A stretch of DNA of 10,238 nt, taken from Pseudomonadota bacterium. GTDB lineage: Bacteria; Myxococcota_A; Polyangia; Haliangiales; Haliangiaceae. Numbering within the stretch: the stretch's first letter is position 1; each line of letters opens with the position of its first letter. Positions 4,754 to 8,105 of the stretch are shown here, one piece after another. The translations under genes and the position numbers were made by a program. Below the pieces are notes generated by a model that was not told the origin of the DNA, did not search any database, and worked only from the letters and a program-made list of their open reading frames with translations. The stretch spans positions 1 through 10,238 of the forward strand of contig JAEYYY010000677.1 of the NCBI GenBank assembly GCA_023430775.1, read 5' to 3'.

Positions 4754-6313
4754 ATGAAGCGAAAGCACGTCGTCATCGGCTTGCTCGGCACCACGCTCGA
4801 TGCCGGCATGCGCGACAAGCGCTGGGAGAAGTGGCGGCCGAGCGTCGCGATCTGCCAGCAGCCCGAGCTCCACGTCGATCGCTTCGAGCTGCTCGTCCAG
4901 TCCACCAACGAGCCGCTCGCGACCCAGATCGTCACCGACATCGCGCGCGTGTCGCCCGACACCGAGGTCAGGCAGCACACGCTCGAGCTCGCCAACCCGT
5001 GGGACTTCGGCGAGGTCTACGCCGCGCTCGACGACTTCGCGCAAGGCTATCCGTGGAAGCCGGCGAGCGAGGATTACTTCCTGCACATCACGACCGGCAC
5101 GCACGTCGTCCAGATCTGTCTGTTCCTGCTGTGCGAGACGCGGGCGATGCCGGGCAAGCTGCTGCAGAGCTCGCCCCAGCGCGACACCACGATCGGCCGC
5201 GTCGAGATCATCGATCTCGAGCTCGCGCGTTACGATCGGCTCGCCGCGCGGTTCCGCGAGCGCACGCGGACCAACGTGTCGCTGCTCAAGCAGGGCATCG
5301 CCACCAGGAACCCGCGGTTCAACGCGATGATCGACGAGCTCGAGCAGGTCGCGAGCAAGTCGAAGGATCCGCTGCTGCTGATCGGCGAGACCGGCACCGG
5401 CAAGACCGCGCTCGCGCGCCGCATCCACGAGCTCAAGCAGGTCCGCCAGCACCTCGCGGGAGAGCTGGTCGCCGTCAACTGCGCCACGCTGCGCGGCGAC
5501 CTCGCGATGTCGATGCTGTTCGGTCACGCGAGGGGAGCATTCACCGGCGCCGCCGAGCCGCGCACCGGGCTCCTTCGCAAGGCCGACAAGGGCCTGGTGT
5601 TCCTCGACGAGATCGGCGAGCTCGGCCGCGACGAGCAGGCGATGCTGCTGACGGCGATCGAGGAGAAGCGGTTCTATCCGCTCGGCGCCGACAAGCAGGT
5701 CAGCTCGGACTTCCAGCTGGTCGCCGGCACCAATCGCGATCTCGCCGCCGATGTCCGCGCCGGCCGGTTCCGCGAGGATCTGCTCGCCCGGCTCGCGCTG
5801 TGGACGTTCCGGATCCCGGCGCTGCGCGAGCGTCCCGAAGATGTGGTGCCGAACCTCGACTACGAGCTCGAGCGGCTGTCCGCCGAGCTCGGCATCCGCG
5901 TCAGCTTCGCGAAGCCGGCGCGCGACGCGTTCGTGCGGTTCGCGGAGTCCGCCGCGTGGCCGGCCAACTTTCGCGACTTCAACGCGGCGCTGCGCCGGAT
6001 GGCGACGCTCGCCGATGGCGGCCGCATCGATCAGGCGATCGTGGCGACCGAGATCCGGAGGCTTCCCACCGCGACGGCGGATGCGGATGTCGAGGCCGTG
6101 CTCGGCGACCGCGCGGCTGCCCTCGATCGCTTCGATCGCGTCCAGCTCGCCGACGTGATCGCGGTGTGCCGTGCGTCACCATCGCTGTCGGCGGCCGGCC
6201 GGACGCTGTTCGCGCACTCGCTCGCGGGGCGCACGACAAAAAACGATGCCGATCGGCTGCGCAAGTACCTCGCGCGGTTCGGTCTCGACTTCGAGACCGT
6301 GCACGACGCTTGA
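4754..6313 (+). CDS. rtcR: RtcR, a sigma54-dependent transcriptional activator with an N-terminal CARF domain, 519 aa.
   Basis: It is colinear with E. coli RtcR. The N-terminus MKRKHVVIGLLGTTLDAG...RWEKWRPSVAICQQ matches MRKTVAFGFVGTVLDYAG...RWSKWRPTLCLCQQ. HITTGTHVVQICLFLL is the CARF core. The AAA+ sigma54-interaction domain has Walker A GETGTGKT and the signature GAFTGA (ARGAFTGAAEP), plus LDEIGELGRDEQAMLL and FREDLLARLALWTF. C-terminal HTH-like tail: AGRTLF...NDADRLRKYLARFGLDFETVHDA. It is divergent from rtcB, as in E. coli rtcR<->rtcBA. Confidence 0.93.
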   Translation: MKRKHVVIGLLGTTLDAGMRDKRWEKWRPSVAICQQPELHVDRFELLVQSTNEPLATQIVTDIARVSPDTEVRQHTLELANPWDFGEVYAALDDFAQGYPWKPASEDYFLHITTGTHVVQICLFLLCETRAMPGKLLQSSPQRDTTIGRVEIIDLELARYDRLAARFRERTRTNVSLLKQGIATRNPRFNAMIDELEQVASKSKDPLLLIGETGTGKTALARRIHELKQVRQHLAGELVAVNCATLRGDLAMSMLFGHARGAFTGAAEPRTGLLRKADKGLVFLDEIGELGRDEQAMLLTAIEEKRFYPLGADKQVSSDFQLVAGTNRDLAADVRAGRFREDLLARLALWTFRIPALRERPEDVVPNLDYELERLSAELGIRVSFAKPARDAFVRFAESAAWPANFRDFNAALRRMATLADGGRIDQAIVATEIRRLPTATADADVEAVLGDRAAALDRFDRVQLADVIAVCRASPSLSAAGRTLFAHSLAGRTTKNDADRLRKYLARFGLDFETVHDA

Positions 6314-6338
6314 CCCGTGCGTGGTTTCGCGCGTCAAT
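6310..6338 (+). promoter_or_regulatory. Candidate sigma70-type promoter giving a leaderless lipoprotein-A mRNA.
   Basis: TTGACC (6310-6315, overlapping the rtcR TGA stop), a 17-nt spacer, GTCAAT (6333-6338), 6 nt, then ATG at 6345. Exactly the same geometry recurs upstream of paralogue B at 7213-7241. No Shine-Dalgarno sequence is present. GTCAAT is a poor -10 match (xxxAAT only), so the call rests on the conserved duplication. Confidence 0.35.
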
Positions 6339-6344
6339 TGCTAG

Positions 6345-7196
6345 ATGCGCGCGATCGCTCTCGCGGTGTTCGCGACGGGATGCCAGGTGCTGTTCCCGTT
6401 GCGTGAGCCCGACAAGGAGGTCGACGCACCGTTGTCGGACGGGCCAGCGCCCGACGCAAACGATCCCGACAAGCCGACCGCGAGCGTCGACGTGCCCCAG
6501 CCGTTCGCTGGGGAACCTTCCGCGGTCAGCGTGACCGTGGTCGGCAACCCGGGCGAGGTCGCGACGTACGAGGTGGCGTTCTCGGAGGGCGATCCGCTGA
6601 CCAGCTCGGCGGCGGTGACCCTGAGTCCAGGCGGCACCGCGCTCGACACCATCACCTGGACTCCGGGCGACGAGCTCAGCCGGGTGAGCGTCGTGACACG
6701 CGCTGATTACGATCCGGCGCTCGCGGCGCCAAACGTCTCGCTCGCCCAGGTCGACGTCTACCAGCGGTTCGGCAACCGCTCGGGAAACGCCGGTCCCACT
6801 TCAGTCAGCGCGAGGATCGTCGCCATTCCGATCGACATCCCCAAGCTGGGTGCGCTCAAAGGGCTCGGCGTCCAGGTCAGCAGCACCGCGAGTGGCATGT
6901 TGGGCATCTACCGCGGCACCACCAAGCCGGAGGTGCTCGTGGCCAAGACCGAGGCGTTTCCGCTCGAGCAAACGTTGACGGTCATCGAGCACGAGATCTC
7001 GAGCGAGCTCCAGCCCGGCAGGTACTGGTTGGCGTTCGTCGCCGACGGCAACTTCAGCATTGGTGGTGATTCGGGAGTGGACGGGAACGCGCTCACCTTT
7101 GACCCTCTCCCGACGCTCGACCTGCCGGACACACCCGAGGATGGCATCGCGTCTGCCGTGCCGTACGCGCTGTCGGCGACCGTCGGCCCACCCTGA
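6345..7196 (+). CDS. Putative lipoprotein (paralogue A), unknown function, 283 aa.
   Basis: The N-terminus MRAIALAVFATGC has a signal peptide plus a lipobox-like ATG-C, followed by a conserved LFPLREP. It is a paralogue of the next gene: shared LFPLREP after the Cys, GRYWLAFVADG vs GKYWVAVVTNG, and C-terminus ATVGPP vs VTVAPP. The first ~66 nt are about 75% identical to paralogue B at the DNA level. Confidence 0.7.
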   Translation: MRAIALAVFATGCQVLFPLREPDKEVDAPLSDGPAPDANDPDKPTASVDVPQPFAGEPSAVSVTVVGNPGEVATYEVAFSEGDPLTSSAAVTLSPGGTALDTITWTPGDELSRVSVVTRADYDPALAAPNVSLAQVDVYQRFGNRSGNAGPTSVSARIVAIPIDIPKLGALKGLGVQVSSTASGMLGIYRGTTKPEVLVAKTEAFPLEQTLTVIEHEISSELQPGRYWLAFVADGNFSIGGDSGVDGNALTFDPLPTLDLPDTPEDGIASAVPYALSATVGPP

Positions 7197-7212
7197 ACGC
7201 TTCAGCGAGCCC

Positions 7213-7241
7213 TTGACGGGCCGACGGTTCCGGCCGTCAAT
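7213..7241 (+). promoter_or_regulatory. Candidate sigma70-type promoter giving a leaderless lipoprotein-B mRNA.
   Basis: TTGACG (7213-7218), a 17-nt spacer, GTCAAT (7236-7241), 6 nt, then ATG at 7248. The spacer itself is an inverted repeat, GGCCGacggttcCGGCC. Confidence 0.35.
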
Positions 7242-7247
7242 GATCGA

Positions 7248-8105
7248 ATGCGAGCGCTCGCACTGGTTGCCTTGACGGGATGCGAGCTGCTGTTCCCGCT
7301 GCGCGAGCCGCCCCCCGGCGATGCCCCCGAGGACGAGCTTGCCCGACCGCAGGGCATCTTGCGCGTCGTCGAGGAGCCCGTGACCGCTGGAACGGAGTCG
7401 ACGATCGAGCTCTCCGTGGTCGGCCACGCGGGCGCCCAGGTCACCTATCAACTCGACAGCGAGCCCGGCATGTTCGAGACCGAAGGCGGCATGCTCGAGC
7501 TCACCGAGGAGGTCGCCGCAGGTGTCGGCCGTGCGACCGCGCTGCTGGCGTGGAACCCGCCGCAGAGCTGTGCGCCCGCGACCGTCAACGCGAGCCTCGG
7601 CTACGATCAGACGATCGATCCGGCCAACCGGACGTCGCTCGACGTCTCGGTCCTCCAGCAGTTCGGAGAAACCAATCTGTCGGCGATGACGGGCACGTTC
7701 GAGCCGGAGGACCTGATCGCGATGCCCGTCCAGGTCGATGCCGAGGGCTGCAACCTGGTCAAGCTCTCGATCGCCGTGCTCGCGACCGACGACACCGTCG
7801 GCGAGATCGGACTCTACGACGACACCGGTCCCGGTCCGGGCAACCTGCTGGTGCGTGCGGAGCTGCCACCATCGAACGTCTCGGAGGAGATGGTGCTGGA
7901 GGCCGAGGTATCCCTCCGCGATCCGTTGCCGTCGGGAAAGTACTGGGTGGCCGTCGTCACCAATGGCGGGCTGGTGCTCGATGCGGAGGGGAACGGTCCC
8001 GCCCTGCTGGTGAACATGGCTGGCACCACGCTACCCGAGCCGTTCCCGAGCTCGATGATGATGAACACGACGCTCCGGGTTGGAGTCACCGTCGCACCTC
8101 CGTGA
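7248..8105 (+). CDS. Putative lipoprotein (paralogue B), unknown function, 285 aa.
   Basis: MRALALVALTGC has a canonical lipobox L-T-G-C, followed by ELLFPLREP. It is a paralogue of 6345..7196 (see above). Its TGA stop at 8103-8105 lies 4 nt from the convergent kinase stop. Confidence 0.7.
   Translation: MRALALVALTGCELLFPLREPPPGDAPEDELARPQGILRVVEEPVTAGTESTIELSVVGHAGAQVTYQLDSEPGMFETEGGMLELTEEVAAGVGRATALLAWNPPQSCAPATVNASLGYDQTIDPANRTSLDVSVLQQFGETNLSAMTGTFEPEDLIAMPVQVDAEGCNLVKLSIAVLATDDTVGEIGLYDDTGPGPGNLLVRAELPPSNVSEEMVLEAEVSLRDPLPSGKYWVAVVTNGGLVLDAEGNGPALLVNMAGTTLPEPFPSSMMMNTTLRVGVTVAPP

Follow-up and report, generated by a model that had tools for sequence, protein, structure and literature searches.

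Two similar lipoprotein genes, here called copies A and B, lie in tandem directly 3' of rtcR on contig JAEYYY010000677.1 (assembly GCA_023430775.1), of which the whole 10,238-nucleotide (nt) stretch analyzed is referred to as the window. The locus raises the question of how two such genes, each preceded by the same promoter-like geometry, would be expressed and what the conserved segment following the lipobox cysteine of both products would do. The explanation that we consider probable as a whole is that each copy has its own transcription unit, is translated from a leaderless mRNA, and encodes a lipoprotein with a signal directly after the cysteine. The family is new and is assembled from known kinds of parts. 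The elements of the two copies are as follows.

6310 to 6315, + strand: -35-like hexamer of copy A, TTGACC
6323 to 6329, + strand: mid-spacer block of copy A, GGTTTCG, common to copy B and the rtcR-linked clade
6333 to 6338, + strand: second hexamer of copy A, GTCAAT (-10-like, noncanonical), 6 nt (tgctag) before the ATG at 6345
6345 to 7196, + strand: copy A lipoprotein gene, 283 amino acids (aa)
7213 to 7218, + strand: -35-like hexamer of copy B, TTGACG
7226 to 7232, + strand: mid-spacer block of copy B, GGTTCCG, the same sequence as in the orthologs at loci L001 and L002
7236 to 7241, + strand: second hexamer of copy B, GTCAAT, 6 nt (gatcga) before the ATG at 7248
7248 to 8105, + strand: copy B lipoprotein gene, 285 aa

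As stated in a preliminary description of this DNA, the spacing TTGAC(C/G), 17 nt, GTCAAT, 6 nt, ATG was exact at both copies (6310 to the ATG at 6345 and 7213 to the ATG at 7248), and no Shine-Dalgarno sequence was present, with neither ATG having GGAG, GAGG, or AGGA within the preceding 20 nt. The window contained two matches to TTGAC-N18-GTCAAT, and 200 dinucleotide-preserving shuffles contained none. Both TTGACC and TTGACG are close to the sigma-70 -35 sequence TTGACA and are followed by 17-nt spacers. A start of the copy A open reading frame (ORF) further upstream is excluded because an in-frame TAG (6342-6344) directly abuts its ATG. The rtcR stop codon (TGA, 6311-6313) sits within the TTGACC of copy A, an overlap already described for the window that recurred in L002 and L085, so that the rtcR stop lay within TTGAC in three of the four rtcR-linked lineages; in L093, it lay 7 nt before TTGAC. 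Aligned to each other, the A and B promoters shared only TTGAC, the mid-spacer GGTT(T/C)CG, and (C)GTCAAT. All six bases between the second hexamer and the ATG differed between the copies, so only their length was kept.

DNA was recovered for ten other family loci, and 11 independent upstream regions were compared, comprising those of the two window copies (winA and winB) and those of other family loci, with the first gene of each array being used.

winA: TTGACC, spacer of 17 nt, GTCAAT, 6 nt, ATG
winB: TTGACG, spacer of 17 nt, GTCAAT, 6 nt, ATG
L001: TTGACG, spacer of 17 nt, ACCAAT, 6 nt, ATG
L002-4: TTGACG, spacer of 17 nt, GCCAAT, 6 nt, ATG
L085a: TTGACC, spacer of 17 nt, CCAAAT, 7 nt, GTG
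L093: TTGACG, spacer of 17 nt, GCCAAT, 10 nt, GTG
L094: TTGACT, spacer of 17 nt, CGTGAT, 6 nt, GTG
L097: TTGACA, spacer of 17 nt, CGTGAT, 6 nt, GTG
L089: TTGACA, spacer of 18 nt, CTTGAT, 7 nt, GTG
L096: TTGACA, spacer of 18 nt, CTTGAT, 6 nt, GTG
L087: CTGACT, spacer of 19 nt, AACAAT, 6 nt, ATG

The layout across these regions was TTGAC, 17 to 19 nt, a hexamer ending in AT, 6 to 7 nt (10 nt in one region), and ATG or GTG, without a Shine-Dalgarno sequence. All but one of the 11 regions had TTGAC at an unchanged distance from the start, and positions 5 and 6 of the hexamer were A and T in all 11. The arrangement was thus retained at orthologs and distant paralogs. GTCAAT itself was not conserved, being replaced by GCCAAT, ACCAAT, or CCAAAT in orthologs and by CGTGAT, CTTGAT, or AACAAT in distant members. 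Within 276 kb of related DNA, apart from a single further site, the ORFs of 100 aa or more that were preceded by this geometry were all family genes. The 38-nt promoter of copy B differed at 4 of 38 positions from that of L002 and at 5 of 38 from that of L001, for synonymous divergences (dS) of 0.43 and 0.53, respectively; on this comparison, the copy B promoter is judged to be under constraint, changing about four times more slowly than synonymous sites. Of the selection on promoter geometry proposed in the preliminary description, the kept spacing and the slow change relative to synonymous sites held up, whereas the GTCAAT shared by the two copies may be a product of gene conversion.

The distances involved resemble those of leaderless genes elsewhere. 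In Haliangiales-like loci (L005-L023 and L085), every in-frame ATG or GTG close to the 5' end of a long ORF was taken as a candidate start and searched for an upstream TAnnnT. This hexamer occurred 16 times at a distance of 6 nt and 15 times at 7 nt, compared with about 4 times at other distances (4- to 5-fold enrichment); control loci, mostly from Burkholderiales, showed no such peak. Examples included rtcR in seven loci and two neighboring genes in L085 (TAGGCT-N7-GTG and TAGGCT-N6-GTG). This enrichment makes leaderless expression plausible in the lineage and suggests that leaderless genes are common in Haliangiales. The order is known almost only from metagenomes, and leaderless expression, if common there, would affect gene-start calling; at four or more loci, the start codon expected from the promoter geometry is not the called one. 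In the literature searched, a single leaderless case has been proposed in Myxococcota, that of pexR, a myxobacterial gene for a bacterial enhancer-binding protein (PMC12754779). Bacterial leaderless genes have a promoter hexamer at a like distance before the start (PMC3160421), and a matching layout is described in two further reports (PMC3898074 and PMC12340547). Copies A and B resemble the leaderless genes of Actinobacteria and Deinococcus-Thermus in having a hexamer 6 to 7 nt before ATG or GTG and no Shine-Dalgarno sequence, and the Haliangiales lineage resembles them in its TAnnnT peak at 6 to 7 nt. The A/B family differs from them in its taxon (Myxococcota), in a hexamer that is not TAnnnT (GTCAAT, GCCAAT, CGTGAT, etc.), and in pairing this hexamer with a near-consensus -35 element, which typical leaderless promoters do not need. 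On this comparative evidence, leaderless initiation is probably the best reading of both starts.

The proteins encoded by A and B were 30% identical (E value, 8e-19), a level of identity as modest as first noted. Word-based protein searches returned two homologs for copy B, both of them orthologs (P0002, 61% identity; P0003, 62% identity), and none for copy A, and a 30-sequence alignment used as the query returned five proteins. When 1.84 billion representatives were searched exhaustively with a profile, 132 proteins were returned at an E value of ≤1e-3, 30 of them at ≤1e-10. About 35 of the 132 were full-length lipoproteins of 270 to 305 aa; in the remaining relatives, the similarity was confined to the C-terminal domain (about 130 aa), which occurred either in repeats or at the ends of phage-tail-fiber-like proteins. 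A search of GTDB genomes and JGI metagenomes with the family alignment found no relatives, and neither copy matched Pfam or NCBIfam at an E value of ≤0.01. Judged from these searches, A and B represent a fast-evolving, undescribed, and unannotated family of putative lipoproteins that comprises about 35 clusters and is restricted to uncultured Haliangiales/Kofleriaceae, which answers in the affirmative the earlier question of lineage restriction.

Structure prediction with AlphaFold2 (AF2) gave copy A, from a 38-sequence alignment, a mean predicted local distance difference test score (pLDDT) of 89.6 and a predicted template modeling score of 0.81, with two high-confidence beta-sandwich domains (aa 45-143 and 149-281) and low confidence for residues 1-43. 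Copy B, modeled from four sequences, had the same architecture (pLDDT, 74.8). Remote relatives of the C-terminal domain matched DUF4082 (P0080; E value, 7e-9), choice_anch_R (P0033; E value, 1.4e-9), and DUF3821 (P0033; E value, 7e-7). The C-terminal 130 aa or so of A and B are therefore alike, by profile search, to these surface modules and to the C termini of phage tail fibers; unlike DUF4082 and choice-of-anchor R proteins, A and B have no direct profile match, and the link is transitive and remote. The mature proteins are modeled as an immunoglobulin (Ig)-like and a DUF4082-like (lectin- or carbohydrate-binding module [CBM]-like) beta-sandwich. The proteins are most likely binding modules, rather than enzymes, located at the cell surface or on the outer membrane.

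Copy A begins with the predicted signal peptide MRAIALAVFATG, followed by Cys13 (6381-6383), the motif QVLFPLREP (6384-6410), and a disordered linker; copy B begins with MRALALVALTG, followed by Cys12 (7281-7283) and ELLFPLREP (7284-7310). Both proteins therefore read ...TGC(Q/E)(V/L)LFPLREP, with the motif directly after the cysteine as originally reported. A positively charged n-region was provided by Arg2 in both copies, and M-R was common across the family. The lipobox pattern [LVI][ASTVI][GAS]-C was matched by L-T-G-C in copy B and, with a less usual Ala at -3, approached by A-T-G-C in copy A; among 33 aligned family lipoproteins, the lipobox held L in 17 and A in 9 at -3, T in 14 and A in 8 at -2, G in 27 and A in 6 at -1, and Cys in all 33. 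These features point to A and B being lipoproteins. In the same 33 sequences, the residues around and after the cysteine were distributed as follows.

Position -1: G in 27, A in 6
Position +1: C in 33
Position +2: D in 14, Q in 6, E in 6, N in 3 (D, E, Q, or N in 29 of 33)
Position +3: L in 20
Position +4: V in 15, L in 10, I in 4
Position +5: F in 30
Position +6: P in 19, G in 6
Position +7: L in 25
Position +10: P in 14

The segment C-[DEQN]-L-[VLI]-F-[PG]-L was the most conserved of the family (2.87 bits per site, versus 1.7 in the folded domains). The core motif thus extended well beyond the two copies of the window, whereas the REP tail of LFPLREP was found only in A and B.

Taken together, these features are consistent with the following mechanism. 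Each gene would form its own small transcription unit, in which a strong -35 element (TTGAC), paired with a weak second hexamer that has AT at its end, would set the start of RNA polymerase at the ATG or within a few nucleotides of it. The ribosome would then bind directly at the 5' start codon of a leaderless mRNA lacking a Shine-Dalgarno sequence. The product would consist of a very short signal peptidase II (SPII) signal (11 to 12 residues before the lipobox Cys), the conserved hydrophobic motif [DEQN]-L-[VLI]-F-[PG]-L at +2 to +7, a disordered Pro/Asp-rich tether, and two beta-sandwiches, one Ig-like and one lectin/CBM-like, the latter being remotely related to DUF4082 and choice-of-anchor R. 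The motif after the cysteine would most likely lie outside the fold and act as a linear signal that is recognized in trans and directs sorting, anchoring, or export.

Several observations count against this account. A sigma-70 consensus scan of the window called no promoters and so neither the A nor the B site. GTCAAT has T rather than A at position 2, and the hexamer lacked A at this position in 10 of the 11 regions, unlike TAnnnT at the other leaderless-type starts of the lineage; sigma-70-type -10 elements need A at position 2. The hexamer stood 10 nt from the start in L093. Four regions (L085a, L089, L093, and L096) fit the geometry only at a start codon other than that chosen by the gene caller, whose ATG overlaps the hexamer in L085a; in L093 and L096, the geometry-fitted start adds the n-region Arg of the signal peptide, which the called start lacks, giving mild independent support for the geometry. 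No terminator was found between rtcR and A or between A and B, so read-through transcripts with long leaders are possible. At the protein level, Cys13 of copy A and Cys12 of copy B (family range, 10 to 20) fall earlier than the positions 15 to 35 of the PROSITE PS51257 lipobox rule. The motif is hydrophobic, unlike known export signals, and only two unrelated carriers of it were found, one of them by searching for the motif itself.

The alternative that survives best, and whose probability we place just below even, is that the motif is a family-specific element, such as a membrane-interface anchor, an extension that compensates for the short signal peptide in Sec/Lgt/Lsp processing, or a contact with a partner. 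It would fit a hydrophobic motif that directly follows an h-region of only 7 to 9 residues and that is unlike both the acidic export signal of Bacteroidota (PMC5080379) and the Lys +2 or Ala +7 of Myxococcus xanthus (PMC3222651). At related loci, 20 other genes were plausible lipoprotein candidates, and 19 of them lacked the motif; in 0.99 Mb of fetched DNA, every strict match fell in a family member. The motif is nevertheless kept by members whose signal peptides are longer (Cys at 18 to 20), and AF2 did not pack the motif region onto the folded domains. Moreover, the motif heads two proteins with unrelated mature parts. A scan of metagenomes for DNA patterns coding for the motif gave 25 matches, of which only L114 and L116 were informative; both encode a 271-aa lipoprotein, (M)KLAVICLCLTGCELVFPLDEP..., whose mature part consists of TSP3-like repeats and on whose start gene callers agree. 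In hhalign, only residues 1-23 of this protein aligned with the family (probability, 94.6%). The second carrier, at L007 (815-1981), is an unrelated lipoprotein that begins MRWMVWLVVLVGCRQILGFEEP and contains beta-helix-like repeats as well as a Cys-rich region; its N terminus has a relaxed form of the motif, also seen in remote family members, and TACGAT-N6-ATG stands upstream. The signal peptides of the two carriers (CELVFPLDEP at L114, 5233-6048, and CRQILGFEEP at L007, 815-1981) are very short, and each gene has a -10-like hexamer 6 to 8 nt upstream of its start. On the earlier question of overrepresentation among lipoproteins, the motif was largely absent at related loci but present on two unrelated passengers. 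Most other matches of the pattern scan lay in a low-GC, stop-interrupted repeat, ...QSEFS|TGCDLVFPLSIS... (L098-L113, L117, L120, and L121), which is unrelated to the family and is probably a eukaryotic or host repeat.

With a motif on two unrelated mature parts, the segment behaves, in what is a very small sample, as a module able to head different passengers, as a sorting signal would, and the sequences lend modest support to a possible role in sorting. To our knowledge, how lipoproteins are sorted other than by the Lol "+2 rule" is understood in few phyla, and in Myxococcota we know only of Lys at +2 and Ala at +7. A motif found on unrelated passengers supplies a concrete, testable sequence for sorting. 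The lipoprotein export signal (LES) of Bacteroidota (K-(D/E)2, or C-X-K-(D/E)2-X; PMC5080379) is likewise short, lies directly after the +1 Cys and outside the fold, and occurs on only some lipoproteins, the carriers of the A/B motif having unrelated mature parts. The A/B motif differs from it in being a hydrophobic L-V-F-P-L after an acidic or amide +2 residue rather than Lys plus acidic residues and in belonging to another phylum. In M. xanthus, of the same phylum, sorting is likewise governed by the first residues after the cysteine, with Lys at +2 specifying the inner membrane and Ala at +7 the extracellular matrix (PMC3222651); the A/B motif instead has D, E, Q, or N at +2 and Leu at +7. 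The mature N termini of A and B (C-Q-V-L-F-P-L-R and C-E-L-L-F-P-L-R) fit neither the LES nor the M. xanthus signals, so by the M. xanthus rules, the products would be neither inner-membrane nor matrix lipoproteins. A more specific proposal, which we advance as doubtful, is that the short SPII signal together with C-[DEQN]-L-[VLI]-F-[PG]-L-x-[DE]-P forms a portable sorting or surface-export signal of a subset of Haliangiales lipoproteins, an analog of the LES that is coupled to -35-dependent leaderless promoters and possibly to an alternative sigma factor.

A further alternative concerns the likeness of the two 5' ends. The identical geometry, GTCAAT, and LFPLREP could derive from gene conversion, or a mosaic 5' end, between A and B, in which case independent purifying selection would not be needed; we regard this as rather unlikely, although some exchange between the 5' ends is possible from their sequences. 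The preliminary description had the N termini conserved at the DNA level, and this held for 36 nt at 89% identity (6374-6409 versus 7274-7309) but for nothing beyond. The body of copy A was about 30% identical to every family member, whereas its 36 nt around the Cys were nearest to those of copy B (31 of 36 positions, versus 27 to 29 for B orthologs, 23 for L085a, and 20 for L093). GTCAAT and the REP tail were each common only to A and B, with B orthologs having ACCAAT with NEP and GCCAAT with QDP and positional equivalents of A having CCAAAT with EAK and GCCAAT with EDD. Between the conserved blocks, however, the two promoters have diverged (0 of 6 and 8 of 17 positions identical), and codons 2 to 9 carry many synonymous differences, which argue against a long recent conversion tract. 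Conversion would account for sequence identity but not for spacing conserved across the family, and the geometry was kept at nine other loci that are beyond the reach of conversion between A and B.

Less probable still is that the transcripts have leaders, arising by read-through from rtcR, from A into B, or from an upstream start, with initiation being independent of a Shine-Dalgarno sequence and TTGAC and the hexamer serving as a regulator site or another signal. Besides the missing terminator-like sites and the missing A at position 2 of the hexamer, this reading could draw on GGTTyCG, which is conserved in the rtcR-linked clade and not required by a plain promoter, and on the second genes of L085, L091, and L096, which are taken to be expressed without promoters of their own. 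Against it, the distance from hexamer to start was held at 6 to 7 nt in 10 of 11 regions while the hexamer sequence was free to vary, the arrangement persists without an upstream rtcR in L001, L087, L089, L094, L096, and L097, and -10-like hexamers are generally enriched at 6 to 7 nt in the lineage. That the TTGAC...GTCAA inverted repeat is instead the operator of a dimeric transcription factor is highly improbable, since its arms, although exact reverse complements in both copies (7 nt in copy B, TTGACGG/CCGTCAA), are not conserved on the right in orthologs (ACCAA in L001, GCCAA in L002 and L093, and CCAAA in L085a, with none in L094, L097, L089, and L096).

Two other promoter assignments were considered and rejected. 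For promoter forms of the extracytoplasmic function (ECF) or RpoH type, no register fit all 11 sequences. For a sigma-54 promoter under RtcR, inspection found CA, not GC, 10 nt on from GG at 6323-6324 and 7226-7227, and 20 related genomes have no family gene after rtcR. The GGTT(C/T)CG block of the spacer was seen in promoters of the rtcR-linked clade only (L001, L002, L085, L093, and the window), and other family promoters were without it.

The order of genes in the window was the MVP homolog (-), rtcB (-), rtcR (+), copies A and B (+), and an ABC1/UbiB kinase gene (-), with the neighbors of A and B being as follows.

780 to 3341, - strand: homolog of major vault protein (MVP), bacterial (Pfam MVP_shoulder, E value of 5e-22; Vault_3; Vault)
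3419 to 4640, - strand: rtcB
4754 to 6313, + strand: rtcR, a sigma-54-dependent activator (Pfam RtcR, E value of 1e-75; Sigma54_activat, E value of 1e-48)
8110 to 9483, - strand: ABC1/UbiB-type kinase gene, convergent and bounding the A/B pair (Pfam ABC1, E value of 6.5e-66)

The nearest RtcR proteins in GTDB species genomes were at most 86% identical and came from metagenome-assembled genomes labeled Haliangiales, Kofleriaceae, or Deltaproteobacteria, which places the window in the order Haliangiales of Myxococcota. A family gene followed rtcR in four lineages (the window, L002-4, L085/86, and L093), and 20 other related genomes had no family gene within 6 kb of rtcR. The full synteny MVP-RtcB | RtcR-lipoprotein-lipoprotein-ABC1 was found in L085, and the ABC1/UbiB-type neighbor was also present in L002, L085, and L023. 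Presence varied between close relatives: L023, whose RtcR is 86% identical, has no family gene and carries the ABC1 kinase gene directly after rtcR (7542-7700), L002 has one copy (1333-1947), and the window has two. The possibility that the family is always tandem was not sustained; pairs also occurred in L091, L096, and L085, and single copies occurred in L001, L002, L087, and L094. In those three pairs, the downstream gene is promoterless, and its start overlaps the stop codon of the gene before it (ATGA or GTGATG). A second copy with what appears to be its own promoter, as in the window, is unusual. In a second neighborhood of the family (L094, 6893-8923; L089, from 1259; L091, from 1257), a gene for a 257-aa protein was followed by one or two family genes and then by an aldehyde:ferredoxin oxidoreductase gene (AFOR_N/AFOR_C).

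Compared with L085, RtcR of the window was 82% identical and the lipoproteins were about 30% identical. Between the window and L002, the nonsynonymous divergence (dN) of copy B was 0.257 (dN/dS, 0.60), compared with 0.048 (dN/dS, 0.17) for RtcR and 0.019 (dN/dS, 0.12) for ABC1; overall, dN/dS of copy B was 0.5 to 0.6, and family proteins evolved 5 to 13 times faster than the flanking genes. Copy A had no close ortholog, and its dS relative to copy B was saturated. Fast evolution, variable copy number, and a domain shared with phage tail fibers would be expected if these proteins were surface molecules exposed to conflict or recognition pressure.

The MVP gene lies directly downstream of rtcB and is divergent from rtcR, and this MVP-RtcB | RtcR synteny was repeated in L085/L086 (L085, 1-5102). 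Vault-like proteins have reportedly been noted beside RtcB in computational surveys of RNA-repair operons; a report of this was not found in the literature searched. Y RNAs are encoded at rsr-rtcBA loci, and Rfam gave nothing relevant among known RNA elements in the window. A terminator-like hairpin with a T-run was seen at 3344-3360 (- strand) in the gap of about 80 nt between rtcB and the MVP gene. The rtcB-rtcR intergenic region (4700-4753) is AT rich, with TATAAG 7 nt before the rtcR ATG and repeated GATAAC/GTTATC half-sites (agATAACgaGTTATCctataaGATAACgg) just 5' of this ATG, which may be an RtcR or autoregulatory site.

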